A stretch of DNA of 64,000 nucleotides from an uncultured bacterium (GCA_963712305.1 CAVQHI010000001.1:1077383-1141382); one strand, 5' to 3'. Positions 16,369 to 33,984 are shown, counted from the first letter of the stretch. The notes: generated from the letters alone by a model not told the origin. A program made the numbers and translations.

Positions 16369-18405
16369 TTATCGCGCTTTGAACTCTACAGGTTCACTAT
16401 TTTTGCTTTCATTTTCTGAAGTATCAACGGCTCTGACAATCAACCACTCCCCGTTTCCAATCCCCCTGTTTCTCAAATTATAATGATTTTGACTGATCAA
16501 TGAATCCGAAACCAGATGATAAACGCCTGTTTGCAGGTTAGATTTATAAATACGGTAACCGGCCATATCATATGTAACGACGGGACTCCATGTCAATACA
16601 AAATTATCCCCGTTCCTCCTGATCCGGACATTGGAAACTCTGCGTGGAGGCTGATGATCGCGAACCCAAACCGTGTCAGATGATACTGCCGAGCTCTTAT
16701 TCCCAGCCGAATCCACAGCTATCATACTGTACAGATACCGATGTCCGAGCTCGATTTGTTCATCCCTCCAGCTTGTTGTTCCCGGATTGAAGTGGCGTGT
16801 TTGTGAACTATCCGTATCTAGTCTCTTTTTTGATAGCTTATAGGTTGTTGCATCGCCGGATGCAGAGTGAGTCCAGATGACATCAATCCAGGCTGCATCA
16901 TGGTTACGGGCACGGAGGTAAGATGGAGGTTTCGGCGGAGTGTTATCTGGAACCTGATAAACGGTAAACAAAGTATCACTCACATTATTGCTGCTGTCAA
17001 GTGCAGCCAGACCATAGCGGTAGTAGGCACCCTCACTGAATCCCAAACCGCCGTTCCCTTTATCTGTAAATACGGTATCACGCATATTGGAAAGATTCAG
17101 TTTGAGAAACCCATCACTTGATGTCTCATTTCCGTTTTGACGCAGAATGATCCAGCTTTTAAAATCACGAGGCATCCTTGAAGGTGTCCACGACAGGTTC
17201 ACTACCGAGTCTTTGTAACTCACCGTGATCCTGCGTGGTGAGGGCGGTGGCGTTACATCCTGGTATAATGCAGAGCCGGGAACACTCTTCGGACTCTCAT
17301 TTCCAGCCGAGTCAACAGCCGAAACACTGTAATAGTAGACATTGCCCTGAACCGCAGTTGTATCGGTGTAACTTTGGTTCTCCGCCGGTAACAGTTGGTT
17401 TGTCATCAACGAGTAGCTGTCCTCCATGTTCTTTTTGCGATACACCCGATACCCTTCCACATCCAGGTCCTTGCTGCTTGGCCAGCTAACCAACATCCCC
17501 TTTTGTCCCGCCACTGCTCCAACGGCACTGATGACATTTGGTGGCACATTATCGATAACATTGTAATCCAACACCTCGCTGGGTTCACTTTCCTGGCCCG
17601 TGATTGAAACGGCCCGGACGAAAAAGTGGGCGGTCACTCCGGATCTGTCCACATTGAAGGTATATTGGAATTGCTGCTTGTCTGTCTGCCTTAATATGAT
17701 GTCGGGATCGTTAATGAGCTGAATATTCCCGTTATTATCCTTCTGATATACATTAAACCGAATTACATGATCATCATTTTGAAGATTGAATGACGCATAT
17801 TTCCATTTCAGCGTTATCAGATTGCCTTTATTTTTAGCAGACAGATCAGTGGACGTCGTCATCACGTGTGGCTTAAGCGTTACCTTTTTGTCCAGGATCT
17901 TTCCCGTGGGATTCCCGATATCATTCACAAACTCTATGTGGTAGGTAACTGTGGAACCTATTGATGCAGTAGAATCGATATAAAGCCGTCCCAAAGCCTG
18001 TGCAACTTCGGGAAACGTAAACGAATACAATCTTCCTTCAACAGGATGTGATCTCAACTTCAGAAACAAACTTTGCGGTGTATAAGCCTGCATCGCTTCT
18101 TGCAACACATCATATTGATCACCTAGAACGCCTTTCAACATTGCCGGATAGGCTACTGAAAGAATCGGCTCATCATTGAGCTTTTTGAGAGAATCCGATC
18201 CCTGATCTTTCCGGTAAATATTGAAACCATGTCCCGGCGGAGGCAGCATCGTATGATAAATATAGACTGCCTTTCCCCGTATAGCAATGCGCATTTGAGG
18301 CGAACTGTTATCCTGAGATTTGGCTGGTTTTATCTGACCCATAACCATCAAACAGCATGCACCGCAAAAGACGGCTAAAAACTTCCTGAATCCTCCAGAT
18401 CTCAT
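16369..18405 (-). CDS. secreted fibronectin type III repeat protein
   Basis: Signal-peptide-like N-terminus. At least 5 FN3-like modules are bounded by D-x-(T/V)-P-P-x-P linkers and end in Y.Y.v.AvD.sGNeS-type strands. The ATG lies 2 nt after the giant gene's stop codon. Confidence 0.8.
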   Translation of the reverse strand: MRSGGFRKFLAVFCGACCLMVMGQIKPAKSQDNSSPQMRIAIRGKAVYIYHTMLPPPGHGFNIYRKDQGSDSLKKLNDEPILSVAYPAMLKGVLGDQYDVLQEAMQAYTPQSLFLKLRSHPVEGRLYSFTFPEVAQALGRLYIDSTASIGSTVTYHIEFVNDIGNPTGKILDKKVTLKPHVMTTSTDLSAKNKGNLITLKWKYASFNLQNDDHVIRFNVYQKDNNGNIQLINDPDIILRQTDKQQFQYTFNVDRSGVTAHFFVRAVSITGQESEPSEVLDYNVIDNVPPNVISAVGAVAGQKGMLVSWPSSKDLDVEGYRVYRKKNMEDSYSLMTNQLLPAENQSYTDTTAVQGNVYYYSVSAVDSAGNESPKSVPGSALYQDVTPPPSPRRITVSYKDSVVNLSWTPSRMPRDFKSWIILRQNGNETSSDGFLKLNLSNMRDTVFTDKGNGGLGFSEGAYYRYGLAALDSSNNVSDTLFTVYQVPDNTPPKPPSYLRARNHDAAWIDVIWTHSASGDATTYKLSKKRLDTDSSQTRHFNPGTTSWRDEQIELGHRYLYSMIAVDSAGNKSSAVSSDTVWVRDHQPPRRVSNVRIRRNGDNFVLTWSPVVTYDMAGYRIYKSNLQTGVYHLVSDSLISQNHYNLRNRGIGNGEWLIVRAVDTSENESKNSEPVEFKAR

Positions 18406-18407
18406 TA

Positions 18408-21400
18408 TTAATTCCCAAATGAACTGTTAATATTATAATTATACACCGGTTTATTAACCTGTACTTTCTCGCTTTGGGCACCGCTCAGCCAAACTACCCG
18501 GGTCAACCCATTTCCATTAGTGATACGAATCCCCACTTCAAGATTTCGATAAAGTGTAATCATATACGGATACACGCCATAACTGAATGTTATTTCTATT
18601 GAGGTCGACTGTCCGGCTGGCACCAGGTCCGTAATTGCAACCAGGTCGTGCCATTGCCCCGAGCTTTCGTTACCGACTGTAGTAACCTTATACTCAACCC
18701 GGCGAATACCCGATTGCGGATCTTTGATGTTGCTCACAGTCAACCGGGCCCGTTTATTAGACAAGCTGCTAAGGTTCACCGTTGGTTTGGCCGGTATACT
18801 TTTATCAATGACAACAGGACCGGTTACCGCTGCGGTTGAATTCATGTTCTGTTTATTAAATGTGCGATAATGGACGTAGTAGGTTCCTGATGACAACTGA
18901 TCGTTTGACACATCTAACTCAGTTGCTGGTAAGTTTCCCGGCCACTGAATATCGCCCTTAGCCGCCTGTTGCCATACATAAATTCCGAATTCCCCTCCAA
19001 GCCCCGGTTGCAATTCATCAGTTGGACTGTCGGGCCAGGTTTTAATCGTTGGCTCCCCGGTTGCGGTCTGACCGATAGCGTACTCACGTCCTTTGATATC
19101 AGACTCAAGGTCTACCGATGGCTTTGTCACATACAGGCGAATGACGTCAGGCATTATCATCGCAGCAACTTTGGGTTTATATGGCGAGGTCGGATCATGA
19201 ATGACTACCGGTCCGAAACGATCGGATTTGCCATATAAGCCGGCATTATTTTGGGCCCTGACGAAGAAATAAAGCGAATCTTTAAAATTCAGTTTACCTC
19301 CTCTTAACTGTACCATTTGATTCTTTGTAGAATCAAGAGACATTGCATCTGAGAAAGCGGCACTGGTATCAGGATTATTCGTAATTACATATTGATAATT
19401 GTAGATGCCCGATTCACTATCTCTTGCCGGCGACCACTTGAGAGTGTAACTGGGTGTTGCGCTGCTGTAAGTGTACGTTGGTCCCTCCATTTGAGGCCTG
19501 TGTTGTACTACAGGAGTAGCCTGCCTATTACCGAATCCGTACACCTGGTATCCACCGCTGACAGGCTGATAAATATACACGGGTTGAATATCAGGAGCAG
19601 AAGGAGCCGTTCCATCATACATGACACCCGACTGTACATGCTTTTCCCTGCTTCGCAGTCCCTCGGAGTTCGTTGAACGAACGCTAACATAAACCGGGTG
19701 ATCGCTACTTAACCTCAGATCATTGGCCGTAATATGATATCTCACATTTGCCATTCCACCGTTATTGCCGCCGCTGCTCAATCGTTGTCCGTGAGCGTCA
19801 GTCCATTGCACGACATTCTGTCCCCCGGGATATGTTCCGATAGCATATTCAACCGATGCAATATCAGATTCCATATCGATCGTCGTGACATCAAACTCAA
19901 TCCTGTCTCTGTCATGAGACATGTATACATATTGCAACCCGGTATTGCTGTTACTGCCGGAGCCGCCAGAACCGTTATAGTTCGTTCCATTTGGCAGATT
20001 ACTACTCGTTGACATACTCAACTGGGCACCCGTAGTTGTTTTGGTCAAATCACCCACAAATCTCTGCGTTTTGTGATATGGGAATGTGACATATGGTGTT
20101 GACGGAGCTGTGTTATCATGATTAATAACATTCTGAGTGTTAGTTACAGAAGGTTCTGGCGATCCGGGGTCAACTGGAACGTCCACCGATGCCACTCTTG
20201 AAATAGTATTTCCTGCTGGTCCCCTCGCACGAACAATTACGCGATAATGTCCGGTTTTCTGTGATGAGGTCCTCTTGAAGGCATAGTAATCCAGATGATC
20301 CTCCGATCCCGCAGTAACCAAATTGCTTGAAAAGATCGATGTTCCGGTCCCCGGTTCAACCAGGATGCTATTTTCAACGACATCGCCGGTCGGATGAGAG
20401 CTGCTCCAGTTAATCTTCATATCATTTCGATAATCATCCTGATCATATTGCATCGTGATGTTATTCACCACTGGAGGTGCAAGCTGTTGATCAAGCTGGT
20501 TCATCTCCTCTTCGATACCGGCGGCTGCAGAATCACCCATCACTGATTTGCGCCAGTTAGCATACACGTCCATCATTCCATACAAGGTGGCCGTCATATT
20601 TGCTTTGATACTGTATATCGTATCCTCAAGCTCGGTGAAACGTTTATGCTTTTGCTTCAGATCGTTTTTGATCGTGTTATAATACTGGATGAGTGAGTCC
20701 GCCATCATCCTGGAATTGCTTTTCAGTGAATCGGCGCCATCCTTAACCGTTTTATACCAAAGCTCCTGGGCCGTGGTCCGGAACATATTTTTAAATGCCC
20801 CGGGATTATTGTTTGCCAGTGCCTGTCTCATTGCGTCTGCTGTCTGGCTCGAATCCGATGTCGCTTGTTGGTTATCGCGTGTCAGATGGTGGATGAAATA
20901 ACGACGCATTCTTGCAACTTTTATGGCCGTACTTTTATAGTCATCTTTGATCTGGCCATTACTGTTGGACATCGTATTAGTGATGTCGTCGATTGCAGAG
21001 TTTATCGATCCATGTAAGCCAGAGATTTGATTACCCACACTTTGTGCCCCATAATAGAGCTGCCATCTCCGATTGATGCGATAACTGTAAAAGTTGTTGT
21101 ACTCATGCTCCATATCGAGATAAGACTTCGCAACATCGTTTAGAGTCGGGCCCAAATACAATGTTATGGCAGGCAATACATGCAGTTCTCCGCCAGCCAT
21201 AAAACTTGTTCCCTGCGTTGTAATTGTAGCCCTTCCTGAAAGTGACTGATCGATTCCGGAAATCATAGTATAAACCGTATCAATCACACTCCGATACTGC
21301 TGGTCGAGCTGCGCGATGCTCTGTTTGTAATTTGCCAGATTATCGCTGTTTTGATTTGCAAGATCAGTATTTACCGAGAATGAGGGCGCACTGCCACTAC

Positions 21401-24400
21401 TCCAGTCGGTGTTTACATTCTGAATAGGCGACGATATTTGATCAGCAAAACTTTGCTCTTCGGTTTCCCACTGAATAGCCTTAGCCTTTGTATTCCTGAG
21501 TCGTTTGATGACGGGGGTTGCCTTTTGAACAAGATCCTCCGTTTCATTTTCAAGAACACTCTGATAAAGCTGGAATACTCCCGATGAAGTATAGTGATTG
21601 TTGAAATTGGTTACGATTTGTTTCACCTGCCTGAATGCACCCGGAGCAGGTTGTGTGAAATAACCCTGCTTTTGCGGCGTAATATCCTTTTCGTTATCAA
21701 TCCAACGCTGCATGATGTTCTGTCGTTGATAATTATCTTTTGTCAACAGTTGCAAGCCGGCAGCCATTAATTCCTGTTGCGTCAACTCTGGCAACTGAGG
21801 CGTGTTTATCGCATCCTGGACAGCATCACCGGCCTCATTCGCTTTGTTCTGCATGTCCTCGGCTTCTTTCCGTGCCTTGTCGACAAGTTCATCATAACGC
21901 TTGTTCCTTCCTGTGCCACCGTCAAATTTCCCGTTACGCAGGGATACCCAGACTCCTACCGTGCCGTTGAACACAAATGCTACCTGAACATGGGCACTTG
22001 CCGCTGCATAAAGGAGATAATTCCTGTGTTCCTTGATAAAGGCACCCTTAGCCGTGGCATCCAATTTTGCCAATCCACCCACAACGGAGGCATGAATTCC
22101 TATCTCGGCATAAGCCCCAAACAGATCTTTGCTTTTAACCCAGAAGACCTGCGCGTCAAATCCACTTTTGATAGTGATAATCTTGAAGTCAAAACCACTG
22201 TGGACACCGACATCGAAGTAAAAGCCGTCCTGGCATACGATAATCTTTGTGCTGGCCTCGGCCAATTTTAATAAACTCAGATCCCCATTACCTTTAAACG
22301 CCCATGTTACTGAGTTATCAGATTTCAACACGGCTTTAAAGCTGACCTCTAATTTCCCGGTTATAGCTTCATGTGCATTGATGGCAACAAAACCGTCCGC
22401 ATTTATATTTATCTGGTTTCCGCCATTCACGTCACTCAGTCGAATGCTGAGGCTGAACCCTCCTTTCATGCTCATTCTGCCTTCTTTTCCATCCTGTTTA
22501 AGCACAATGGCATGAGCGTCAATGAGCACATTTGTATCCGTGATAACAGCCAGTGCACTGCCTTCCGCAGCATATGCCCCCGTTGATCCGGCGATGCCCA
22601 TATCTACATTAACAATGACTGCAAATGTGTAGTTTTGGTTACCGCTCCAGGGTGGCGTATAGTTCATCCCCTGGTCGCTCGACTGACTTGCAACAGTCTC
22701 ATATCCGGTTAGGTCTATTACTTCCTGTATATCCCGGGAACTCGCATTGTAGAAGAAACCGCCGCCAATACCGGTCATGGTAATAACCCCCGGAACAACA
22801 GGAACCGTGGCTTTTACTTTCACAAATACACCGAATTTCAGTTTTTGATTCAGGGTCGATATCTCTCCGAATGCAGCAATTTCAGAGGTACTCTGTCCTA
22901 TACTGAACGATCCATCACCAGCCACCTTCAGCAGGATTCCATTATCCCCGGAGTCGAATTGCATATCGGCATTTATATTTGCGTGGTCCCCGAATGTCAA
23001 AGATGCTTTCTGGATTGCAAAATGGACTCCGTTATCATCGGTCGTTTGATAGAAATAGATGTGCTGTACACTACCGCTTATGCTTCCAATCGTAATGGAT
23101 AATGCACTATTCGTGTTCTGTCCCGGGCCAAAATCAAGATAGTTGCTCACATTGATCGTCTCCTCCTGAGCATCATCTATGTCGTGTGGATCATCATTAG
23201 CTCCACTGTTGTTTTTACGAACGGTGATTGTGCCCGATTCTTTATAAGTGAATTTCCCGACTTCAATCTGAACCTTGTCTCCTAACGTCTTCAAATGTCC
23301 GCCCGTGAAATCACCAATTGAGGCAACCCCGGTTTCGTCGATGATCATGTTTGCGAAGCTAAATCCGCCGTCAATATCACTCATATTAAGACTGGCACTT
23401 CCATCGAACTTCAATCCGAAGTTCGATGCATCTGGTATTGAAATGTTGCTGACCCCGATGTCGAAAAACTGACGGTTGAAATCCAGGTTCGAGTTGGGTT
23501 CAACATGCCACGTTGTATGCCCATCCTGGTACTCAAAACCATGTTGCCCGGATACAGAACCGATATGAATCGTGCTGTTTCCGCTGGACGGATTCTTTAC
23601 TGTCAAATCGGCCGACGTGTAGAAGCTGGTCTGACTCATATCCTGTAAATCCATGTTTATTCCGGCGTCGGTCAACGTAATAGTCGCAAAATCTCCAAGG
23701 TCATATGATGGATGTTGTGACAGATCAAACTCCGGACCCTGCGTCGTAACATTTCCATCTTTATCCACCGCAACAGTAAAGTTTGAACTGTCGCTGATTG
23801 GAGCAGGCAGCGTAACTTCCCCCTGTGCCTGAAGTTTAAGGGATGAGTTTTGCATTAATAACTTCAAAGAAGTCAGGGATGCATAATTGCCCAAAATAGG
23901 CTGCGGTTGATTCAGGAACTCGAGACCTGCATTCTGAATGGATACATCGCCGTTTGATCCGATACTCAGATTCTTGAAAGAAAAATCGCGGTCGAGTGCG
24001 TGCAGGTTCCCGCCCATCGTAAGGGTCAACACATTCTGCTGGTAGTTAAGATCCAGGCTATCAAGCCTCATGTGCGCAAACCCGTTTAGGATGTCAACAT
24101 CCTGAGGCGTCAGAGCATGCGTATCAATCTGGTTCACCGATACACCGCCGGTTCCTATTCTCAGATTTTGGATACTCAGCTCAAATTCATCACCCAAAAG
24201 TTCCGGAGCCTGCAGCCGTCCGTCAATGACCATCGCAAGTTCCTGCGGTGATACGGCAATGGTCAGACCATCGACCTTCATTCTGAGCCAGTGGTCTCCA
24301 ACCCCATATTCATCACCAAGCTGCTGTGCGTTACTGGCGAAGTTCCACTTGTCGTTCGTGATATCATAACCGGCGGAAAAATGGAGTCGTCGCATCTTTT

Positions 24401-27400
24401 GAGTAACTGTATCGACCAGCATCTTGCTGTAAAACTCACCAGACAGATTGATTTCTTTCTGGTTACCCATTTTCACCTGAGCACCATCCACCGACATAAC
24501 GAACCCACTGTCCGGAAGGAAACTGTGCGAGACAAGAGGATGTTGCGGCACTTGAGCAGGTAATGAATGCGAATATTCACCAGCTTCAATTGTTGCCTTC
24601 TCAAAACCATCGGGACCAAGGGTAACCTCGTTTATGGCTACAGGTACGTCATTAAGAGATTGAGGCAACAGAATTTTCAGTGAAGCGGTCAGCTTGAACG
24701 GTTCGCTCGATTTTTTGGCATACTTAAGGGCTGTAATTGATAACGGGACCTGCATCAATGGTTTCAGATCTATCGGATTCTGTGTCAGATCGGCCTGAAT
24801 CTGACCTCCCATGATCTGGAAGGAACTGTTCACATCAACATCCTGGAATGTGACATCGATAACCGGCGGATTTGCATTATCCAACCCGGCAAGCACCAGT
24901 TTTACCGACTTGTTGGCCTTGGTTGACAGCCGCATTCCGCCTTGAATAGATTGCGATTGAACATTCAGAGGTTGATTGGGCCCGTCCCTAAGCACAAGGT
25001 AAGCAACATCCCTGGTCGGCAGCCCTAAAGTATCCGGCAGAGGAACTGCAGCCACAATGTTATCCATATGGAAACCCTGCTGGTCGTAGTAGGCTACACG
25101 TTCAGTCTGTCCATTCTGTTCCACTTTATTAATGTCAGCACGTCCCGATGTCACCTGTACCGGTGCAAGGCTCATGCGCATATTATGGAACTGCACCTGG
25201 TAATCGTCACCGTTCTCGCCGCCAAACCGCATTGCCACCGTACTCTGACCATTGACCAGCATGCCGTCTTTGTCGATGGTTACTTGCTGGGGCATCACAA
25301 AACGAACTCCCGGATCAACAGAAATAGGTGAGTTAGGATCGACGACGGTCCATTTCAAAGGATTGAAGCCGACTTCCATGCCAAAACTATCCTGGAACTG
25401 AATATTGCCGGATGATATGGTACCATCAGAGAGATTTAGGGCCAGGTTATTGAAGTTTGCCTGAACTGTTGCACCATCGGCATTCAGCGTTCCTCCCCCT
25501 GTCAGCACAAAACCGTTATTGGTGATGGCAGCCTGCTGAACGGTAAACTTGAGTAAAGAATCTGTTGATGGGTAGTACCATATAAAGGGACCGGGAATAT
25601 TTATGTTACCCGAAAGCACCTGTCCGTTGAGAACATCCAGCATTAGATTTCCTGATGCTGTCACTGGAGTCGTATTCTGGGTCTTCACGGTAGCCGTTGC
25701 TGAACCCTGCATGATCAGTGTCTGTTGATTTCCACTAAAACCAAACTGGAGCTGTGAACTTCCAAAACTCAAACTCAGCGGACCCATAACCAGTTGACCG
25801 CAGGGAGTGAAGTTGTCAACCGTGCCGGTGAGCCCGCCGAGTTTGTTGAGGCGTACTGCAAACGTTTTTTCCGGGCAGTTTTGATTCGGAGAGACAAAGA
25901 AATCAGGCTCCTGCAGCTTGCCTGATAATTCGATATCGTAATCCTGAGTACCATCCGGAGCCCGTCCAAGGTTACCTGCTATTTGTTGTAGAATGAGTCC
26001 TGTATGCGAACTCAGAGGCAGATTTATCCCATTTTCAAAAGTGTATGGATCAAGCTGTCCCTCAAGAATTCCATTATTGAAACCAATATCACTCAGCGTC
26101 GCCGAGGCGTGTGCCAGTCCGGGTGATGTCTGGGCAAAACCCGGGAATGTCAATTTGAAATCAAGATGAGGGATCAAACCGACCAGATCACCCGGACTGA
26201 ATGAGAACCAGTGTAGTGTGTCCTTCCGTGTTCGGAAAGCCAGTGGTTTCAGATGAAATGCCCCGACATCAAATCCAGTCAGGTTCAACGGCGGTGTTGA
26301 ACTGTCGTTTATCTCCTGTTGCGGAATGATGATGCCGATACCACTCTTAATCTGTACATTTCGCAACGGAACCGTAATAGGATCACCTTCATCCGGAGCC
26401 AACGTGAAATGGACATTGATATCAGCCAAATAGCTTAATCCCTGCTGTTTCGACCAGTTTAGATTGAGTTGGTCAATCTTATCGACGGCAACTTTGAAAT
26501 TTCCCATTTCGAGTTTGGGAAGTGTCGCGTTTGCCTGGCTGTTGAATTGTGTCACAGTCATCTGATCCTGGGTCCAATGGAGTCCAAGACTCGCAGATGC
26601 TGCCGCCTCTCCGTTCAGAGCATTGACGTGGAAATCTGCATTCATATCGAACGAGAACTGTGAATTGGCAGGATCTGTCGCAGGAATATCAAGATCTCCG
26701 GAGATTGAGTTAACATTAAGTGCCACCCGTGATTGATCTTCAAGAGGCAGCTCTGCATTCATGTCAGATAAATCCACCTGCGAGTGGAGATGGCCATTTA
26801 ACCCGGCTGCAATAGTAATGTGTCCATTATCTCCAAGACTATGATCAAGCAGAGCGATTTCTGATTTTAACTGCAGTTCGGGAGAACCGCCATTATTACC
26901 AGGGTCGCTAAACAAGACCTGGTACACCTTTGCGGGAACACCTAACCGGTTCAGGTCAAAAGCGGCATTATCTTCGGGAACATCTACACTGATCGTGCCA
27001 CTCATCACATCACCGGTCGAGGGATTAATGTCCACATTATTCAGATTGACATCTAATTGGGGTGCCTGTGCCAGGTTGCCTTGTAAGGCTGGAAATACTA
27101 ACGGTAAGGATGCCCCCGGTTTTTTTGTAATTCGCAACGTGCCATCCGGCTGCCGCTGCGTTTGTACCAGCAGAGTGTCGTTTCGTTTAATTTGCAGATA
27201 AGCGATCGATTCAAGCGGCAAAGGTATTCGTTCAGGCAGAAACTGGTTTCCGAAAAATGCCGGATCGGGAAAGAAGCCGTTGGTCGTTGCGTAACCGACA
27301 CGCTGACCCTTCCAGTCTAAATCGACTTCTCCGTTCTTAATTCCGAACGGCTGTAATGCGATAGCGAAATCATCCGAAAACTGTGCCCTCAAGCTGTCCA

Positions 27401-30400
27401 GTTGCCACTGATCATAATGCAATTCAGCCTTGGATGATCCGGTAGCATGAAGACCAAGCGTATCAATTTGAAGAGTACCTTTCAGCGAGGCCATAAGTCC
27501 GGGGTTCAGTGACAGAGTGCCTGGAAGCGGTTGTGTGTGAAAAGAAAGATTCTGGCTGTTGTCGATTCCTGCCTCGAGTGCAAAACCACTGTCGATAATC
27601 ACACGGCCACTTTTTACATCAAATGTTTTCCAGTCGAGAACCAGGTTATCAAAGGTCGAGCCAATTTGTTGGTTTCCAACCTTCAGCGTTTGCCGACCGT
27701 CGATATATAGTCCATCTTTGGTGATCTTCGCCCTGTTGATATGAAAGACCATAACCGGGTTATCCTTTGGGATGTTCCAATCGAACGGATGATTCATCTC
27801 GAAGTCGACTTTAGAAAACTCTCCAGTCATCAGATCGATTGCTACCTGACCGGTCACAGATTGATTATCTCCTAAATCCAGAGTAGCAGTACTGCTCAAT
27901 ATCGCCTGTTGTTGACCATCTTTCACATTGAAGTTTATATCGGCCTGATTAATAGCAGCGGTATACGGACCAATTGCTATCGGACAATCAGGTGCGACGT
28001 TTGAGATGTTACCCGTAAGTGTACCGTCCTGATGAAGTGCCAATGTCGCCTGACCCAGATCTGTCTGATGAGGTGGATCACAAGTGAATGGTTCACCCAG
28101 CAATAAACTTGCAGAGAGTTTTACATTACAGTCGACTTCCGGCTGATCCCCTAATGCGATACCAATGTTTCCACCAAGTTTGTGAAGAATTAAGGCATAA
28201 TCTCCTCCCAGAGGGATTTTGCAGTTGTCCAGCACTGTGCCCTTCAAGGCTCCTGTCAGTTGCCCATCTTTGAAACCGGCATCGGACACGGTATAGTCTC
28301 CGGTTTTCAAGCAAGATGGAAATGTGTCAGGAAGATCATCGAATCCAAACGTGAAACTGAAATCCAGATTCCAATCATCATCCTTCCACTGGTCACGGTT
28401 AAAAAACGGGAAGTTTACTTTAGGAAGATGCAGTGATACCGGCTTGATGTGGATACCATCGAAATGCAGCACCGGTATTCCAGCAAAATCGTCCGATGTG
28501 AGGTTAATATCAGGAAACTGCATCCCTTTGTCAGACGAAAGCTTCAGTCCTTTCAGCTCTGGCAGCGACAACGGAGTCAAGCCGGTAATAGCCGGCCAGG
28601 CATCGAAACTGAATCCGAAATCCCATTTCGATTGTGATGATGAGGATGGATTGTAACCAAGATGATCAAGGTTGATCTTATCCAGTCCAAGTGACATCAC
28701 ACCGAGATTAAGAGTTGGATTGGGGATTTTGCAGTCTGGTATCAATTTGCCGACCGAAACGCCTTTACTGTCTCCCAGGCGGATGGTTGTTAGTCCGCCG
28801 CAATAATCGCTGGTATTCTCTTTGAGTTTGAATCCAATCTGGCTTTGAATTGCCAGGTTGTAGTGTCCTTTTCCTCCCTTTAGCGGATAATGAATATCGC
28901 CCGTAAGATTGAGCATCTTGAACCTCAGCAGCTTCGATTGAGGAACAGGGTAAAAAACCTTTGAATCCCGGCAATCTATCGCGGCCATCACTGTATCCTC
29001 GCGAAATCCAAGCAACGGGATATCGCAAGTTAGTTCACCGCTAAACAGGCTCACCTGACCCGATGCCATCAAATCTGCTTCAGGAAACTGTACAGATAAA
29101 GTGTTGACCTCGAGTTTTACCGGATCCTGACCGTAGGCGAAGATAGGCCCACCTTCATTTCCGGCTTCAATCTTGCCTGACAATCCCTGGGAGTTAATCT
29201 GTAATTTCCCCTTACTTTTATATGTTTTACCATCGGGACCAACAATATCAGCAGTGGCTGTCATCCCACTGCCCAGATCCCAGCTAAGCTTATTCAGATG
29301 GATCAGATTATTTGACGGGACAAGATCCTCAGGCAGTGAAAAATGGCCGGCTACGACCTGTCCACCTAGTACAACCGGCGGATTCATAGATCCTTTCTGA
29401 ATCGAAAGATTTCTCACATCCACTTTGACGATAACAGGCTCAGGTTCGGTTGTAAACCGGAGGAGAAGAGTTGCGGTCCCATTCAATATATAATTACTGG
29501 TCAGTTCCTTATAATTCAGATTTTTCAAATTTACCAAGTCAGCAAAACCGGGTATCAACGGAATATTTTTCAGATTTTTTAAAGATTGAGATAGCTGGTT
29601 TTCTGAATTATTCAGTCCGAAAATGAATGTCTGGATCTGGCTTTTCCCGCTATCTTTAAACGGAATCAATCCTTCCGGATCGGTGGCTGTTATTTGCCAC
29701 GCATACTGATGACCTTCTTCCAGAGGCAGGTTATTGGGGGTGTAGCTGTAAGTAGTCTGATTGTTCAGTACGTGATCGGCCGTCGGTCGGTTGCTGTTGA
29801 TCGCCTGAAGTGGAGTTTGCCCGTCAACGATTTCCACGATCTTCAGGTGATAATCGATTGGTAATCCCTGTCCTGTTACAACCGGTGTCCATGCAAATAC
29901 GGGTATTTTCTGAGTAACATTCGATTCATTGGAAGGACTCACCAGAATAGGCGGCTGCGGCAGTCTCACAGTAAACACGGCAATCCCGGGGACTACACCT
30001 ACAGCCCCCGTCTCTCCTTGTGGGATAGCTCTGATCTCCATGCGATAGGTTCCCTCCGGAATGTTGCCCCCCTGGACGACCTGTCTTTTAATTTTCTTAT
30101 CAAGGTTATTTAGAACATCTGAGATAGATTTAGGAAAGGATACATCATCAAAAAAGGAGGAAAACGTGTACATGCCCGGTGTATACTGGACCGGATCGGA
30201 AGTCATATCTATAAGATTATCTCCATTTCGCGATAGCTTCATCTCAAAACGAAAACTTTTCGGTAACTGAGAAGCATTGGAATACATGAACTGAACCCGG
30301 TATAAACCTACCCGAAATTTCTTTTCCAGCACTCCCAAATATGGCGATGAGATCTGAGATGGAATACCAATTATCTGAACCTGGCTTGTACCCTGTGCCT

Positions 30401-30500
30401 GCACGGAAGTTGTCGACACTACACTCAAAAATCCCACAAACAGGACTAATCCTGTCAGGGTTTGTAATATTTTTTTTATCGTAATTCTCATTCTCCTCAT
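18408..30500 (-). CDS. giant (4,030 aa) secreted modular protein of unknown function
   Basis: A single uninterrupted 12,093-nt ORF. GAGG lies about 9 nt upstream of the ATG. Signal peptide ...VVSTTSVQA-QG. From N to C: Ig/FN3-like N-terminal modules, about 2,300 aa of beta-rich sequence, a Gly/Ala/Val-rich segment, a ~480-aa helical Q/N/K/E-rich segment, and five C-terminal Ig/FN3-like modules. Confidence 0.9.
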   Translation of the reverse strand: MRRMRITIKKILQTLTGLVLFVGFLSVVSTTSVQAQGTSQVQIIGIPSQISSPYLGVLEKKFRVGLYRVQFMYSNASQLPKSFRFEMKLSRNGDNLIDMTSDPVQYTPGMYTFSSFFDDVSFPKSISDVLNNLDKKIKRQVVQGGNIPEGTYRMEIRAIPQGETGAVGVVPGIAVFTVRLPQPPILVSPSNESNVTQKIPVFAWTPVVTGQGLPIDYHLKIVEIVDGQTPLQAINSNRPTADHVLNNQTTYSYTPNNLPLEEGHQYAWQITATDPEGLIPFKDSGKSQIQTFIFGLNNSENQLSQSLKNLKNIPLIPGFADLVNLKNLNYKELTSNYILNGTATLLLRFTTEPEPVIVKVDVRNLSIQKGSMNPPVVLGGQVVAGHFSLPEDLVPSNNLIHLNKLSWDLGSGMTATADIVGPDGKTYKSKGKLQINSQGLSGKIEAGNEGGPIFAYGQDPVKLEVNTLSVQFPEADLMASGQVSLFSGELTCDIPLLGFREDTVMAAIDCRDSKVFYPVPQSKLLRFKMLNLTGDIHYPLKGGKGHYNLAIQSQIGFKLKENTSDYCGGLTTIRLGDSKGVSVGKLIPDCKIPNPTLNLGVMSLGLDKINLDHLGYNPSSSSQSKWDFGFSFDAWPAITGLTPLSLPELKGLKLSSDKGMQFPDINLTSDDFAGIPVLHFDGIHIKPVSLHLPKVNFPFFNRDQWKDDDWNLDFSFTFGFDDLPDTFPSCLKTGDYTVSDAGFKDGQLTGALKGTVLDNCKIPLGGDYALILHKLGGNIGIALGDQPEVDCNVKLSASLLLGEPFTCDPPHQTDLGQATLALHQDGTLTGNISNVAPDCPIAIGPYTAAINQADINFNVKDGQQQAILSSTATLDLGDNQSVTGQVAIDLMTGEFSKVDFEMNHPFDWNIPKDNPVMVFHINRAKITKDGLYIDGRQTLKVGNQQIGSTFDNLVLDWKTFDVKSGRVIIDSGFALEAGIDNSQNLSFHTQPLPGTLSLNPGLMASLKGTLQIDTLGLHATGSSKAELHYDQWQLDSLRAQFSDDFAIALQPFGIKNGEVDLDWKGQRVGYATTNGFFPDPAFFGNQFLPERIPLPLESIAYLQIKRNDTLLVQTQRQPDGTLRITKKPGASLPLVFPALQGNLAQAPQLDVNLNNVDINPSTGDVMSGTISVDVPEDNAAFDLNRLGVPAKVYQVLFSDPGNNGGSPELQLKSEIALLDHSLGDNGHITIAAGLNGHLHSQVDLSDMNAELPLEDQSRVALNVNSISGDLDIPATDPANSQFSFDMNADFHVNALNGEAAASASLGLHWTQDQMTVTQFNSQANATLPKLEMGNFKVAVDKIDQLNLNWSKQQGLSYLADINVHFTLAPDEGDPITVPLRNVQIKSGIGIIIPQQEINDSSTPPLNLTGFDVGAFHLKPLAFRTRKDTLHWFSFSPGDLVGLIPHLDFKLTFPGFAQTSPGLAHASATLSDIGFNNGILEGQLDPYTFENGINLPLSSHTGLILQQIAGNLGRAPDGTQDYDIELSGKLQEPDFFVSPNQNCPEKTFAVRLNKLGGLTGTVDNFTPCGQLVMGPLSLSFGSSQLQFGFSGNQQTLIMQGSATATVKTQNTTPVTASGNLMLDVLNGQVLSGNINIPGPFIWYYPSTDSLLKFTVQQAAITNNGFVLTGGGTLNADGATVQANFNNLALNLSDGTISSGNIQFQDSFGMEVGFNPLKWTVVDPNSPISVDPGVRFVMPQQVTIDKDGMLVNGQSTVAMRFGGENGDDYQVQFHNMRMSLAPVQVTSGRADINKVEQNGQTERVAYYDQQGFHMDNIVAAVPLPDTLGLPTRDVAYLVLRDGPNQPLNVQSQSIQGGMRLSTKANKSVKLVLAGLDNANPPVIDVTFQDVDVNSSFQIMGGQIQADLTQNPIDLKPLMQVPLSITALKYAKKSSEPFKLTASLKILLPQSLNDVPVAINEVTLGPDGFEKATIEAGEYSHSLPAQVPQHPLVSHSFLPDSGFVMSVDGAQVKMGNQKEINLSGEFYSKMLVDTVTQKMRRLHFSAGYDITNDKWNFASNAQQLGDEYGVGDHWLRMKVDGLTIAVSPQELAMVIDGRLQAPELLGDEFELSIQNLRIGTGGVSVNQIDTHALTPQDVDILNGFAHMRLDSLDLNYQQNVLTLTMGGNLHALDRDFSFKNLSIGSNGDVSIQNAGLEFLNQPQPILGNYASLTSLKLLMQNSSLKLQAQGEVTLPAPISDSSNFTVAVDKDGNVTTQGPEFDLSQHPSYDLGDFATITLTDAGINMDLQDMSQTSFYTSADLTVKNPSSGNSTIHIGSVSGQHGFEYQDGHTTWHVEPNSNLDFNRQFFDIGVSNISIPDASNFGLKFDGSASLNMSDIDGGFSFANMIIDETGVASIGDFTGGHLKTLGDKVQIEVGKFTYKESGTITVRKNNSGANDDPHDIDDAQEETINVSNYLDFGPGQNTNSALSITIGSISGSVQHIYFYQTTDDNGVHFAIQKASLTFGDHANINADMQFDSGDNGILLKVAGDGSFSIGQSTSEIAAFGEISTLNQKLKFGVFVKVKATVPVVPGVITMTGIGGGFFYNASSRDIQEVIDLTGYETVASQSSDQGMNYTPPWSGNQNYTFAVIVNVDMGIAGSTGAYAAEGSALAVITDTNVLIDAHAIVLKQDGKEGRMSMKGGFSLSIRLSDVNGGNQININADGFVAINAHEAITGKLEVSFKAVLKSDNSVTWAFKGNGDLSLLKLAEASTKIIVCQDGFYFDVGVHSGFDFKIITIKSGFDAQVFWVKSKDLFGAYAEIGIHASVVGGLAKLDATAKGAFIKEHRNYLLYAAASAHVQVAFVFNGTVGVWVSLRNGKFDGGTGRNKRYDELVDKARKEAEDMQNKANEAGDAVQDAINTPQLPELTQQELMAAGLQLLTKDNYQRQNIMQRWIDNEKDITPQKQGYFTQPAPGAFRQVKQIVTNFNNHYTSSGVFQLYQSVLENETEDLVQKATPVIKRLRNTKAKAIQWETEEQSFADQISSPIQNVNTDWSSGSAPSFSVNTDLANQNSDNLANYKQSIAQLDQQYRSVIDTVYTMISGIDQSLSGRATITTQGTSFMAGGELHVLPAITLYLGPTLNDVAKSYLDMEHEYNNFYSYRINRRWQLYYGAQSVGNQISGLHGSINSAIDDITNTMSNSNGQIKDDYKSTAIKVARMRRYFIHHLTRDNQQATSDSSQTADAMRQALANNNPGAFKNMFRTTAQELWYKTVKDGADSLKSNSRMMADSLIQYYNTIKNDLKQKHKRFTELEDTIYSIKANMTATLYGMMDVYANWRKSVMGDSAAAGIEEEMNQLDQQLAPPVVNNITMQYDQDDYRNDMKINWSSSHPTGDVVENSILVEPGTGTSIFSSNLVTAGSEDHLDYYAFKRTSSQKTGHYRVIVRARGPAGNTISRVASVDVPVDPGSPEPSVTNTQNVINHDNTAPSTPYVTFPYHKTQRFVGDLTKTTTGAQLSMSTSSNLPNGTNYNGSGGSGSNSNTGLQYVYMSHDRDRIEFDVTTIDMESDIASVEYAIGTYPGGQNVVQWTDAHGQRLSSGGNNGGMANVRYHITANDLRLSSDHPVYVSVRSTNSEGLRSREKHVQSGVMYDGTAPSAPDIQPVYIYQPVSGGYQVYGFGNRQATPVVQHRPQMEGPTYTYSSATPSYTLKWSPARDSESGIYNYQYVITNNPDTSAAFSDAMSLDSTKNQMVQLRGGKLNFKDSLYFFVRAQNNAGLYGKSDRFGPVVIHDPTSPYKPKVAAMIMPDVIRLYVTKPSVDLESDIKGREYAIGQTATGEPTIKTWPDSPTDELQPGLGGEFGIYVWQQAAKGDIQWPGNLPATELDVSNDQLSSGTYYVHYRTFNKQNMNSTAAVTGPVVIDKSIPAKPTVNLSSLSNKRARLTVSNIKDPQSGIRRVEYKVTTVGNESSGQWHDLVAITDLVPAGQSTSIEITFSYGVYPYMITLYRNLEVGIRITNGNGLTRVVWLSGAQSEKVQVNKPVYNYNINSSFGN

Positions 30501-30544: not shown

Positions 30545-32299
30545 CTAAAATCGATGCCGGTATTGAAATCTTCCCTGAAGTTCTTTGAAATTCTGACCTC
30601 GCCCCTGCAGTGCTTCATTATCCAGGAAACGGACAGATAAATTGAATGTATCTTTGCTCGTCAGCCGGTATGAAGCCGAGCCGTTACCCATGATTTGTGC
30701 CATCTTCATATTTCCGGCAGTCACGTTCACACTGGGTGTAGTCTTGTTTGTGTTATATCCCCCATTCAATGAAAGTGTCAGTTTGTTCTGAAGCATGGAA
30801 TAACTCAGGCCAGTGTTAAAACCAATGTTATTGATATCCACTGAACTGGAGTGGTTTTTCATGTAGTTGACCGACGCATTGACTCCCATCCCGCTCGGCA
30901 GCGATACGCTATATGACATCATCCCGTTAATTGTGCTGGACCCAAAGTTCGAAGGAACATTAGCATTTGGCTGAGAAGACTGGTCAAGACTGGTTTTAAG
31001 GTTCAGATACGACAGACTCAGCGAGATCGTATGCATTAATGCTCCTGCCTGCATAGACAGGGTCGGCTGCACCATTATGTTATTGGAAACCTGTGTTTGC
31101 CCCAGGCCTGCCGTCAAAGAATCGGCAACCCCGGCCGTAGGATTTATCTTATGAATAAAAAGGTTGTAAGAGGTATTGACCGTGAAAAAATTGGAAAACT
31201 GGGTTTGAAGATTGCTACCAAGCTGAGTCGTTTTTTGGGTGGTCAGACGGGTTCCGTTGAGATTATCCCGGCCAATAGAAAGGTTGTTGGACATCACGAC
31301 ACGGCCACCGGCGAGTTTAAATTTAGGGGCGATACTAACCGTCTGCTGATCATCCCGTATCTGACTGACTCCAAGTGATGTAAAACCGGGTTGAATACGT
31401 TCCAGTCCCAGGCTGAGGGCAAATACATCTAGATCAAGAGCGGCCTTGGCATTTCCCGCATAATTCACTCTCGACCCTGTTCGCGGTTTGAATAATTTTG
31501 ATATAAATGGGGGAACCCCCGCACTTGATAGATCCAGCATTTTAGCATTTAAATCACGAGTATAAACCGAAACCGTAACCTGACTACTTATATTGAAAGC
31601 ACCTTTAAACATGGATATTCCAAAATCCGGAGTCAGTTGAAGGTTCTCTTGCGGTGTATCCACTGCCGTTGTATCCAACGAATTCTTATCATCAATGGCA
31701 TAGAGAGCATTGATGTAAAAATGACTCTTCTCCTCATCTCCAAAACCGATTTTCCCAGCCATCATCCACTGACGATAGGCAATTTGTCCTAAGCCAACAT
31801 TTGGTCCCGGCCTGACGGCACGCTGTGATCGCCCGCCGGTAAGTTCCAGATGAAAAGTACCCGGTGTGAGCTTAAGATAACCGCCCCGTATGGTTGCTCC
31901 GCTCAGACTGTATTTCCCCATCTGTGGACTTACGTCACCGACCTCAAGATGAAGCCAGTGCCAGTTTCCGTTAAAACCAAACCGATTCATGCTTTGCCGG
32001 AACCGGGAATTGTCAGATGAGTAGAGAAGATTCAGACCTGAATGAATCCCAAACAGTGAAAAGGAAACATTAGCATTTGCACGGGCAAGGAGCCCCGGCT
32101 GACGGCCATTAATTCCGTAGGCCTGGTACGCTTGTGTTGTAAACCCAACCGATCCGCCCGCCGTAAAAGGCTGAATATTCGTATCCCCTATACTGCCTGT
32201 GCTGATTTGAGCATCTGCCGTGTTTACAACAAAAAAGCATACCCCGAACATCAGCATTGCCAATGCTACAAGGTTAATCCTTATTTTTATTCGAATCAT
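30545..32299 (-). CDS. putative outer-membrane beta-barrel protein (584 aa from the ATG at 32299)
   Basis: Signal peptide MIRIKIRINLVALAMLMFGVCFFVVNTADA-Q with AAGGTGAGG just upstream. The sequence is rich in G/S/N/T/Y, shows alternating-hydrophobic strand patterns, and ends in C-terminal ...FQYRHRF (the terminal aromatic typical of OMPs). Confidence 0.6.
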   Translation of the reverse strand: MIRIKIRINLVALAMLMFGVCFFVVNTADAQISTGSIGDTNIQPFTAGGSVGFTTQAYQAYGINGRQPGLLARANANVSFSLFGIHSGLNLLYSSDNSRFRQSMNRFGFNGNWHWLHLEVGDVSPQMGKYSLSGATIRGGYLKLTPGTFHLELTGGRSQRAVRPGPNVGLGQIAYRQWMMAGKIGFGDEEKSHFYINALYAIDDKNSLDTTAVDTPQENLQLTPDFGISMFKGAFNISSQVTVSVYTRDLNAKMLDLSSAGVPPFISKLFKPRTGSRVNYAGNAKAALDLDVFALSLGLERIQPGFTSLGVSQIRDDQQTVSIAPKFKLAGGRVVMSNNLSIGRDNLNGTRLTTQKTTQLGSNLQTQFSNFFTVNTSYNLFIHKINPTAGVADSLTAGLGQTQVSNNIMVQPTLSMQAGALMHTISLSLSYLNLKTSLDQSSQPNANVPSNFGSSTINGMMSYSVSLPSGMGVNASVNYMKNHSSSVDINNIGFNTGLSYSMLQNKLTLSLNGGYNTNKTTPSVNVTAGNMKMAQIMGNGSASYRLTSKDTFNLSVRFLDNEALQGRGQNFKELQGRFQYRHRF

Positions 32300-32418: not shown

Positions 32419-32967
32419 TTATTTAAGGCCCACCATGACCGCAGAGCTCGATATCTCTTTTCGTGAATCTCGATTTACCGGAATTACGGCCACTACATAC
32501 AGCATCTTAAAACCACCACTCTTTTGGAGGGCCAAATTTGGGACCCACCGATCGTCAGGAAACCAATGAGCATCAGGAAACCATTCATCACCCGGCAAGT
32601 AACTATCATCAGGAAGGTAGGTGCCGGATGGGAAATAGGTACCACTTGGGAAAAACGGGCTCTCACCGGAAATCTCGAATGAACGACTTTTGTAGCTTTT
32701 AACAATTTTACCCTTTTGAACAATTGATGTTACCAGTATGCATTTAACCGATTCTTGGATATCAGCCTTTACATATATGCTTCTTTCGACCAGTTGCTGG
32801 AGTTTGGAACCATCCATCTTTTGCCGGGGAAGCTGCATCTTAACAGCCATTTTTAGCTGACCGTACTGGGCATTTGCATTACATGTAAAAATCAGCAATA
32901 AAACGTTTAAAACCACTGCACAAATATTCCAGCACCGAATATTTTGTCCCTCTTTTTGAGCCTTCAT
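32419..32967 (-). CDS. small secreted protein with six tandem aromatic hexapeptide repeats
   Basis: AAGGAAAAGG lies upstream of the ATG at 32967. Signal peptide ...LLIFTCNANA-Q. Repeat block: FPSGTY FPSGTY LPDDSY LPGDEW FPDAHW FPDDRW. Confidence 0.6.
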   Translation of the reverse strand: MKAQKEGQNIRCWNICAVVLNVLLLIFTCNANAQYGQLKMAVKMQLPRQKMDGSKLQQLVERSIYVKADIQESVKCILVTSIVQKGKIVKSYKSRSFEISGESPFFPSGTYFPSGTYLPDDSYLPGDEWFPDAHWFPDDRWVPNLALQKSGGFKMLYVVAVIPVNRDSRKEISSSAVMVGLK

Positions 32968-33726
32968 TTTCACCTTTTCCTTATGAATAATTCCAATTAT
33001 GAACAGTCTATAAATTCACGTTGATGACGTATTATTTTTCGAAAGCATTAAATAAGTATTCTCCATTTTTATCATTAAAATGATCCATACGTTTCATCTA
33101 AATTTTACTTTTAAAAAGGTATTAAACCCTAACACTTTTTATCTTTAAACACATAATATGCTATGATTTGTCGTGTAATCATGGTTCATACAGAAGTCAG
33201 AATAGTAAACCAGATCTATCTTAATATCTGAGAAAACCGGGGTGAACCAATTGCGCAACACACTCCTCTATTACTGACTTCAACCAACCATTTTTATTTC
33301 TATTAGGCCACAACTAGAAATAAAGGTCAAAAATTAAACTTAAATATTCAGTGTGGATATATACCGTATTTTTAGATAAGAACTGTGCAAATGCACACTT
33401 TTATAATAGTCATGTAGGAAATAAATATGATACCAACTGATATTATATAATATTTACTAAATCTAATAGTATGATAATATTTTCATGACCTTTCTCATGA
33501 CTTTATATTTAATATTCCTAATAGTTATATACATGCATATAAAGTATATTACGCTCAAGTGAAAAAAATTTTTTGGGGAAAATTTTAATTTGTTTGGGTG
33601 AAAATACCGAGACCTCATTAGACAGCAATCTAAATTTTACGTGATTACGCTTATTGATTTCTTTGAGTCAAACAGACTATCCTCTTAAATACATTAGTGC
33701 AACTTTTTGGGGTTAGAAAAGGGGTT

Positions 33727-33984
33727 ATGAATACAAAACTAACATTGAAACCCGGTCAACGGGGAACAAAAAAGCTACTTAAGAAGTATGGCAACAGGCT
33801 CATTTGTGTGCGCTATCGCTACGATGAGGAAAAAAAGTTGCGATATAAAACTGTGGAGTTAATCGTCGATGTTTCGGAATGGGAGCCGAAAGAAGATGCG
33901 ATTAAAGATGAATCCATTCATCCTGAAATAGAAGAATTCAGCATTCCAGAAAAAAAGAAAACGTTCGACGGTAATTCTAAATAA
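33727..33984 (+). CDS. small basic conserved hypothetical protein (85 aa)
   Basis: MNTKLTLKPGQRGTKKLLKKYGNRLICVRYRYDEEKKLRYKTVELIV... I recall similar small proteins (KPGQRGTKKL...VCVRYRYD...KTVELIV) in unrelated bacteria but cannot name the family. It is the only credible ORF in the AT-rich gap. Confidence 0.45.
   Translation: MNTKLTLKPGQRGTKKLLKKYGNRLICVRYRYDEEKKLRYKTVELIVDVSEWEPKEDAIKDESIHPEIEEFSIPEKKKTFDGNSK

Follow-up and report, generated by a model that had tools for sequence, protein, structure and literature searches.

Kinesin light chains have tetratricopeptide repeat (TPR) domains that bind Trp-acidic and Tyr-acidic peptides (PMC6214655). Sigma factors of the extracytoplasmic function (ECF) type that are linked to a kinase and have no anti-sigma factor form an established class, made up of ECF43 and others and represented by the pairs PknT/EcfP and PknS/EcfK (PMC7826278, PMC13147305). 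The present analysis concerns a 64,000-nucleotide stretch of DNA from an uncultured bacterium (GCA_963712305.1 CAVQHI010000001.1:1077383-1141382), referred to here as the window. Its minus strand carries, at the head of an operon for large envelope proteins, a gene for a 182-residue protein with six tandem hexapeptides. Sequence comparisons place this protein in an undescribed family of exported proteins that is conserved and sparsely distributed, and the strongest association of this family, previously unreported, is with kinase-linked ECF sigma modules. Tentatively, and with somewhat less than an even chance, the array of hexapeptides, acidic and aromatic in character, is proposed to split an exported domain and to be recognised, as a multivalent peptide ligand, by a partner in the periplasm.

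Translation of the window gene bears out the phased Phe/Leu-Pro-x-x-x-Tyr/Trp array of the first-pass annotation, with six units exactly at 32545-32652 (Table 1). The units read, in order, FPSGTY-FPSGTY-LPDDSY-LPGDEW-FPDAHW-FPDDRW and are preceded by SPF and followed by VPNLAL. Every unit has Pro at position 2 and ends in Tyr or Trp at position 6, Phe or Leu stands at position 1, and the array as a whole contains 7 acidic, 1 basic and 10 aromatic residues together with 6 Pro. Between units 1 and 2, three codons carry a total of 5 base differences out of 18, all of them synonymous (including AGT versus TCC for Ser), and no 18-bp DNA repeat was detected at the array by Tandem Repeats Finder. The periodicity is therefore held at the peptide level, in agreement with the selection on the peptide that had been proposed. 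In a six-frame translation of the 5.34-Mb genome, this array is the only run of at least three such hexapeptides, which places it far beyond chance. The array is genuine, has no counterpart elsewhere in the genome and is maintained at the peptide level.

The array lies in an intact gene. The minus strand forms a single clean open frame from 32419 to 32973, the remaining two frames on the same strand are closed, and a GTG at 32973 is an alternative start that would yield 184 residues. The hexamer coding score is +0.10 in frame, the other two frames score -0.74 and -1.03, and the scores of the opposite strand are negative. At about the 30th percentile of the genome's open reading frames (ORFs) of 150-250 residues, the score is modest and within the coding range. 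The ANA-Q site of the N-terminal signal falls in the same alignment column as AQA-Q, AHA-Q and AYA-Q of family members. This Sec-type signal, aligned with the sites of the relatives, agrees with the earlier reading of the 182-residue product as a secreted protein. Cleavage at ANA-Q is likely on these grounds, and the mature protein would comprise about 149 residues.

Table 1. Coordinates of the repeat gene, its parts and the other genes of the operon, counted from the first letter of the window
Feature	Coordinates	Strand	Remarks
182-aa exported repeat protein, coding sequence	32422..32967	minus	start ATG 32967; stop codon 32419-32421
Putative Sec-type signal peptide, residues 1-33	32869..32967	minus	basic N-region MKAQKEGQNIR / hydrophobic core / ANA-Q; read from sequence
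N-terminal half of small alpha/beta domain, residues 34-105	32653..32868	minus	beta-alpha-beta-beta-beta
Six hexapeptide units, residues 106-141	32545..32652	minus	from translation
Degenerate seventh unit, VPNLAL	32527..32544	minus	Pro at position 2 retained, aromatic lost
C-terminal part of domain, residues 148-182	32422..32526	minus	strands MLYVVAVIP and SSAVMVGL, closing the fold
584-aa outer-membrane beta-barrel candidate	30545..32299	minus	next gene downstream of the repeat ORF, 119-nt gap
4030-aa giant exported protein	18408..30500	minus	no significant Pfam match
678-aa FN3-repeat exported protein	16369..18405	minus	Pfam fn3, E = 1.3e-12
677-aa exported TPR protein	14299..16332	minus	closes the operon; matches to several Pfam TPR families, best E = 2e-26

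A phmmer search of 1.84 billion representative proteins returned nine relatives of the window protein (best E = 1.2e-8). Five of these are 177-197 residues long and share the same layout along their entire length. The best full-length relative and closest family member, the 186-residue P0003 from a Rubricoccaceae metagenome-assembled genome, aligns with residues 23-178 (E = 3.2e-8). Three others are lipoproteins of 347-361 residues with two such modules, and the last, P0010, is a 794-residue protein with a PQQ-type beta-propeller, a PGF-CTERM anchor and the array FPGDMW-FPGDTW-FPGDSW-FPGDHW-FPGDSW. Since P0010 stands outside the small-protein family, the array can occur as a portable module; the same surface protein, archaeal by its PGF-CTERM, also holds a two-unit copy of the repeat. 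A profile search added 20 further clusters, including 'hypothetical proteins' of Pseudooceanicola marinus and of an Arenimonas species. With the HMMER scan and follow-up searches, the family comes to about 60 relatives from Rhodothermia, Proteobacteria and metagenomes. In genome profile searches, 5 of 400 other genomes sampled across the phylum carried it, as did 21 of 400 others from the class Rhodothermia (10 of 143 genera).

Homology of the window protein to this family was assessed with hidden Markov models (HMMs) that were built from the other members only, after removal of signal peptide and repeats, and with 1000 shuffles. The N-terminal half scores 31.4 bits (E = 8e-12) against the repeat-free family HMM and the C-terminal part 10.6 bits (E = 2.4e-5) against the C-terminal HMM, and 0 of 1000 shuffles reach either value. 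Because the homology survives removal of the repeats, membership is independent of this low-complexity sequence. The window protein has the export signal, the N-terminal half, at least three phased units and the C-terminal strands of the family.

Known families gave no counterpart. The window protein has no match in Pfam or NCBIfam, no Pfam family at E <= 0.1 is matched in more than one of 22 family members, and NCBIfam holds nothing for the repeat modules. A sequence profile search of the PDB returned chance matches to short Pro-Asp peptides only, and comparison of the AlphaFold2 model with the PDB by Foldseek gave template modelling (TM) scores of about 0.3 or less at E >= 0.009, with no fold assigned. 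A full-text literature search for the repeat motif strings retrieved nothing relevant, and a word-index search of 5.8 billion proteins with the window protein as single query gave no match. The suspicion that the repeat comes from an undescribed family is thus upheld across Pfam, NCBIfam, the PDB, Foldseek and the literature strings. A choline- or cell-wall-binding repeat (such as PF01473), which had been named as the finding that would speak against a new family, was rejected on the absence of a Pfam or NCBIfam match and on a period of 6 rather than about 20.

The common layout of the family starts with an export signal (Sec, Tat or lipoprotein), continues with a small alpha/beta domain and three to nine units, and finishes with closing strands. 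The twin-arginine motif RRxF[LI] is present in 10 of 22 aligned members (counted by eye in the alignment), and such Tat-like signals imply a folded domain. The segment of about 70 residues before the array is predicted as beta-alpha-beta-beta-beta, and the closing hydrophobic strands follow the pattern LFVVAV...AVVVF. When supplied with the 22-sequence alignment, AlphaFold2 yielded a mean predicted local distance difference test (pLDDT) score of 76 and a predicted TM score (pTM) of 0.66, compared with a pLDDT of 40 for the single sequence without alignment. Block means of pLDDT are about 77-93 in the flanking parts (about 83-93 in the N-terminal half and 81-91 in the C-terminal part) and 46-71 in the array. 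The C-terminal strands are placed at residues 155-163 and 172-181, and no strands are predicted in the array. This pattern of confidence suggests that the N- and C-terminal segments contact each other in one compact alpha/beta domain, into which the array would be inserted as a loop.

Across 158 units, the family unit is [FLVI]-P-[G/D]-[DESN]-x-[YFW]. Position 1 is F in 52%, L in 23%, V in 11% and I in 7%; position 2 is P in 100%, by construction of the count; position 3 is G in 77% and D in 9%; position 4 is D in 53%, E in 13%, S in 13% and N in 9%; position 5 is variable, with M in 37%; and position 6 is Y in 33%, F in 31% and W in 23%. Two members that are 59% identical, P0015 and P0017, differ by one 18-residue gap, exactly three units, and many Rhodothermia arrays are near-perfect (IPGDAF five times, FPGDEL five times, FPGDSY four times). 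Near-perfect arrays together with whole-unit changes in length point to ongoing expansion and homogenisation. Despite its divergence, the window array retains the Pro, the aromatic positions and the acidic character.

These features bear on two other explanations of the array. The occurrence of Pro-Gly at positions 2-3 in 77% of the 158 units, the variation in length by whole units and the low AlphaFold2 confidence would all suit a flexible or elastic Pro-Gly turn spacer that has no specific ligand and sets a distance, or serves as an entropic spring, between the domain halves. Such a spacer is nevertheless considered quite unlikely: with the N- and C-terminal segments predicted as one compact domain, the array would be a closed loop and not a linker between modules; positions 1, 4 and 6 are conserved as much as the Pro-Gly pair, which a mere spacer would not need; and the window array has retained its aromatic and acidic positions while being largely devoid of Gly. 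Asp or Glu at position 4 (66% of units), Met at position 5 (37%) and an RcnB-family gene two genes downstream of P0013 could alternatively indicate a metal-binding array, in which calcium would be held by Asp/Glu, or copper or silver by Met and aromatics, in a periplasmic buffer or sensor. This explanation is very improbable, since neither the window array nor most Rhodothermia arrays contain Met, no His or Cys is conserved, and the neighbourhoods hold no recurrent metal-resistance genes.

Other known repeats and domains were considered as identities of the protein and rejected. The left-handed beta-helix hexapeptide repeat (PF00132, 'Hexapep') is similar in its six-residue period, in which one fixed position is hydrophobic. 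Its consensus, [LIV]-[GAED]-x-x-[STAV]-x, has neither the Pro nor the aromatic pair of the present family, however, and its fold requires units in threes, whereas any number from three to nine occurs here; no Pfam match was obtained and no strands are predicted in the array. PepSY-type domains (PF13670) are likewise small and exported, with a helix packed on a beta-sheet, but are without a repeat insert. The only match to them is that of P0009 (1 of 22 members; 16.4 bits against a cut-off of 24.3, E = 0.009), and Foldseek gives PepSY no support. A peptide natural-product precursor with repeated cores was dismissed on account of the export signals, the folded domain and the lack of recurrent maturation enzymes nearby.

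The recurrent neighbours of family members are a PF07638 ECF sigma factor and an adjacent Pkinase-TPR protein (for example at L042, L045, L055, L046, G136 and G241; for L046, of high GC, reading frames were chosen by third-position GC). Local HMMs of the sigma factor and the kinase were built and scanned on 40 member loci, fetched with +/-10 kb. In the window's own genome, these HMMs give 227-257 bits for two true pairs versus <=25 bits for all other ECF sigmas. A PF07638 sigma factor is found within +/-10 kb in 17 of the 40 loci, and one further locus has the kinase at the contig end. Genomes mostly contain 1-5 PF07638-type sigmas, and one contains 20, so that about 1-9% of random loci would be expected to have one nearby. 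The binomial P does not exceed 2e-8, the value obtained at 9%, and becomes about 2e-7 when the loci are collapsed to about 13 arrangements, 9 of them positive, a grouping made by judgement in which relatedness is not fully controlled; these context statistics carry no correction for phylogeny. At L042, the member, the sigma factor and the kinase lie on one strand, with the member upstream and a gap of 65 nt between it and the sigma gene. Divergent operons are seen at L045, L046, L063 and L088, and convergent genes at L061. In an initial comparison of the regions upstream of the sigma genes, whose start codons are uncertain, no shared promoter motif was visible.

The kinases consist of a catalytic domain, a single hydrophobic transmembrane helix at residues 368-431 and about 430 residues of TPR_12/TPR_10. 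The catalytic part must lie in the cytoplasm, and from topology the TPR half beyond the single helix should therefore be periplasmic. One of the sigma-linked kinases in the window's genome is split into overlapping ORFs (C2:1099407-1101543, with ORFs 1099407-1101188 and 1101148-1101543), which suggests a frameshift, due either to a pseudogene or to an assembly indel. The other is encoded at C2:1974336-1976846, with its putative periplasmic half at residues about 390-837.

The same neighbourhoods could mean that the repeat protein is a mere target of the ECF sigma factor, that is, a stress-induced exported envelope protein whose loop binds peptidoglycan, glycan or lipid. The first-pass annotation had suggested the barrel, peptidoglycan or a glycan as possible binding partners; the recurrent neighbours point instead to signalling kinases with putative periplasmic TPRs. 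Many members are divergent from the sigma/kinase pair and lie amid lipoproteins and OmpA-, PKD- and PD40-domain proteins; a divergent arrangement is the usual layout of an ECF regulon, and aromatic ladders bind sugars and choline in other systems. This explanation appears rather doubtful, given that no carbohydrate- or wall-binding family is matched, that the L042 member, upstream of the sigma/kinase genes on the same strand and only 65 nt away, resembles a signalling component more than a target, and that the strong negative charge of the window array (7 acidic, 1 basic) is atypical of glycan-binding aromatic platforms.

In the window, the repeat gene is followed in order by those for the 584-aa barrel, the 4030-aa giant, the 678-aa FN3 protein and the 677-aa exported TPR protein (the signal peptide of the last is read from sequence). 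A sigma-70 promoter and terminator scan, otherwise uninformative, found no terminator-like site in the gap that separates the repeat ORF from the barrel gene. Of 40 relatives, 13 have barrel homologues, and a giant gene with the same N-terminal motif directly follows the barrel wherever the downstream gene could be read. The regions upstream of the homologous barrel genes contain no phased Pro-aromatic repeat. Nine barrel loci in relatives are without the repeat gene in this position: non-coding DNA precedes the closest barrel (G004, 70% identity), a TPR-protein homologue lies upstream in L005, L008 and L019, and unrelated genes are found elsewhere. With the TPR gene last in the window operon and directly upstream of the barrel in these relatives, the gene order is permuted; the C-terminal motif FLIEALQKSNR of the window TPR protein corresponds to LIEALHKSDR and similar sequences in the same three loci. 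No giant gene was found within 10 kb of P0003. Because barrel/giant operons of relatives are without the repeat gene, the repeat protein is not a fixed partner; it represents an add-on specific to its lineage rather than a core component of the giant operon.

A second case of such an add-on is present in G537, a member of another family of the Balneolales. There, a 206-residue family member (YPDSVF-YPDSVF-FPGSSY-YPDSVF) is encoded about 240 nt downstream of the FN3 gene of an operon that is homologous to that of the window (barrel 35-40% identical, a 1971-aa giant-like protein, FN3); at their N-termini, the window giant and the 1971-aa protein share 39.5% identity. By chance, about 0.02 cases of a member beside such an operon are expected over the Balneolales loci, a rough estimate set against a single case, and the direct adjacency of a same-strand member to the barrel-giant-FN3 operon is thus unlikely to be accidental. 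The idea of a dedicated barrel/giant accessory is therefore weakly supported: the nine barrel loci of relatives without the gene contradict it, and the G537 member at the far end of the operon speaks for it. In the same region (G537:C6:167347-181417; L085, L091), a PF07638 ECF sigma factor and a TPR kinase are transcribed away from the barrel gene across a gap of about 220 nt. This locus alone unites sigma factor, kinase, barrel, 1971-aa giant-like protein, FN3 protein and family member, and it indicates that giant-protein operons can be physically coupled to sigma-phosphorylation signalling.

Conservation, on which the significance of the repeat had been made to depend, holds for the family across phyla and fails among close relatives. 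Among 40 relatives from the order, a protein search returned no orthologue, and three genomes of the same genus show no DNA match to the gene itself and match only the DNA upstream of it. In one of the genus (G003), the flanking genes are retained, the whole operon is missing and unrelated genes stand where it would be. A small basic ORF in an AT-rich gap of the window (33697-33984) is conserved in same-genus genomes; its G003 version is 83 residues long, with a near-identical N-terminus and DNA about 75% identical, in a genome from which the giant operon is absent. The absence of an orthologue in close relatives, together with the most diverged array of the family, the coding score near the 30th percentile and the frameshift-like split kinase elsewhere in the same assembly (C2:1099407-1101543), would fit a decaying, non-functional or unexpressed remnant that lies next to the operon by chance. 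That the window copy is such a remnant is highly improbable, since its 182 codons are intact, signal peptide, both domain halves and array are all present and match the family, units 1 and 2 differ only synonymously, and G537 also places a member in a homologous operon.

With three to nine acidic-x-aromatic copies on an exported loop, encoded beside a TPR sensor, the array is a natural candidate for a ligand or co-sensor. Among possible receptors of the proposed multivalent ligand, TPR domains, whose grooves accommodate short extended peptides, appear the most plausible as far as sequence can indicate. The array would form an exposed, turn-rich loop that presents several aromatic-plus-acidic short linear motifs to a periplasmic partner. 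In most lineages this partner would be the TPR sensor domain of the sigma-linked kinase, and in the window genome it could be the operon's 677-aa exported TPR protein or one of the two unlinked kinases. The repeat protein would then serve as an accessory or signalling adaptor of envelope systems and not as a structural part of the giant machine. The step of TPR binding as a whole, argued by analogy, ranks between unlikely and tentatively possible. A broader version, in which the array is a multivalent ligand of periplasmic TPRs, the family supplies a missing co-sensor or modulator of ECF-activating Ser/Thr kinases and the Balneolales use it as an adaptor to the barrel/giant machine, is unlikely; if true, the same adaptor in the Balneolales would link the sigma/kinase route, or a free-standing exported TPR protein, to that envelope machine.

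Several observations weigh against TPR-directed signalling by the repeat protein. Proximity to ECF sigma genes may only reflect regulon membership, and 23 of the 40 loci, several of them on short contigs, show no sigma factor. The window gene itself, at C1:1.11 Mb, is not near either sigma/kinase pair of its genome (C2:1.10 Mb and C2:1.98 Mb), and the operon's 677-aa TPR protein has no specific similarity to the TPR halves of the kinases. No other array of the family is as degenerate as that of the window, which has Gly at position 3 in one of six units. Finally, the low AlphaFold2 confidence in the array would fit a disordered linker equally well.

Further genes were observed around members of the family. 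LemA-family genes lie next to or near members in three unrelated loci, L031 (8602-9162, Pseudooceanicola), L063 (6665-7240, G241) and L059 (13678-14262, G319); the first is assigned by Pfam and the other two are judged from N-terminal sequence. Two large lipoproteins adjoin sigma/kinase pairs: a 716-aa protein in L061 (9130-11277, G136:C4) with two repeat modules and C-terminal repeats that appear TolB/PD40-like by eye, and a 772-aa protein in L063 (8235-10550, G241:C11) with FPDDQW-FPDDQW-FPGDQW. G241:C11 has three such pairs within 20 kb. A lipoprotein with collagen-like GPQGPEGPQGP (L061 5297-6163, G136:C4) is part of the same cluster as a repeat protein and a sigma/kinase pair. In G502 (Rhodothermales), 20 PF07638-type sigmas were counted at E <= 1e-25, versus 2-5 in four other genomes searched; this is a large expansion of the kinase-linked sigma class.

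The novelty of these results lies in the protein family and the type of repeat, not in a demonstrated mechanism. A testable role can be proposed for 'hypothetical proteins' from Rhodothermia to Alpha- and Gammaproteobacteria, and the repeat extends to an archaeal surface protein. To our knowledge, no signal sensed by kinase-linked ECF sigmas of the ECF43 type has been established, and a small exported tandem-motif protein that recurs beside the kinases offers a concrete candidate for the partner of their putative periplasmic TPR sensor domains. In the giant operon, a conserved core (barrel, giant, FN3, TPR) can now be separated from a lineage-specific add-on, and the G537 locus suggests that barrel/giant operons can be wired to sigma/kinase signalling.

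Compared with described systems, the modules beside family members share with ECF43-type systems a PF07638 sigma factor, an adjacent Hanks-type kinase and the absence of an anti-sigma factor. The repeat protein has not been described as part of those systems, no such partner was found in the papers searched, which deal with kinase-sigma pairing, and the window copy, unlike them, is not linked to a sigma factor. TPRs of kinesin light chains fall in the Pfam classes TPR_12 and TPR_10, and the sensor halves of the kinases resemble these receptors in matching TPR_12 and TPR_10. The kinesin light-chain motifs are likewise extended peptides, sometimes in tandem, in which an aromatic residue is flanked by acidic ones (PMC6214655). 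As kinesin light chains are eukaryotic, kingdom and compartment differ, and the likeness would be an analogy of mechanism, not homology. In contrast to the kinesin motifs, the present one recurs in tandem with a strict period of six residues, keeps its Pro invariant and lies inside a folded domain; it is known from its sequence pattern and neighbourhood. Elastin (VPGVG) and high-molecular-weight glutenin (PGQGQQ, a beta-spiral) are similar in their short tandem units with fixed Pro-Gly, variable number and low predicted order. Those arrays are long, uncharged and part of eukaryotic structural polymers, whereas those of the present family comprise three to nine strongly acidic units with paired aromatics, in what is probably a loop of a small bacterial periplasmic domain.

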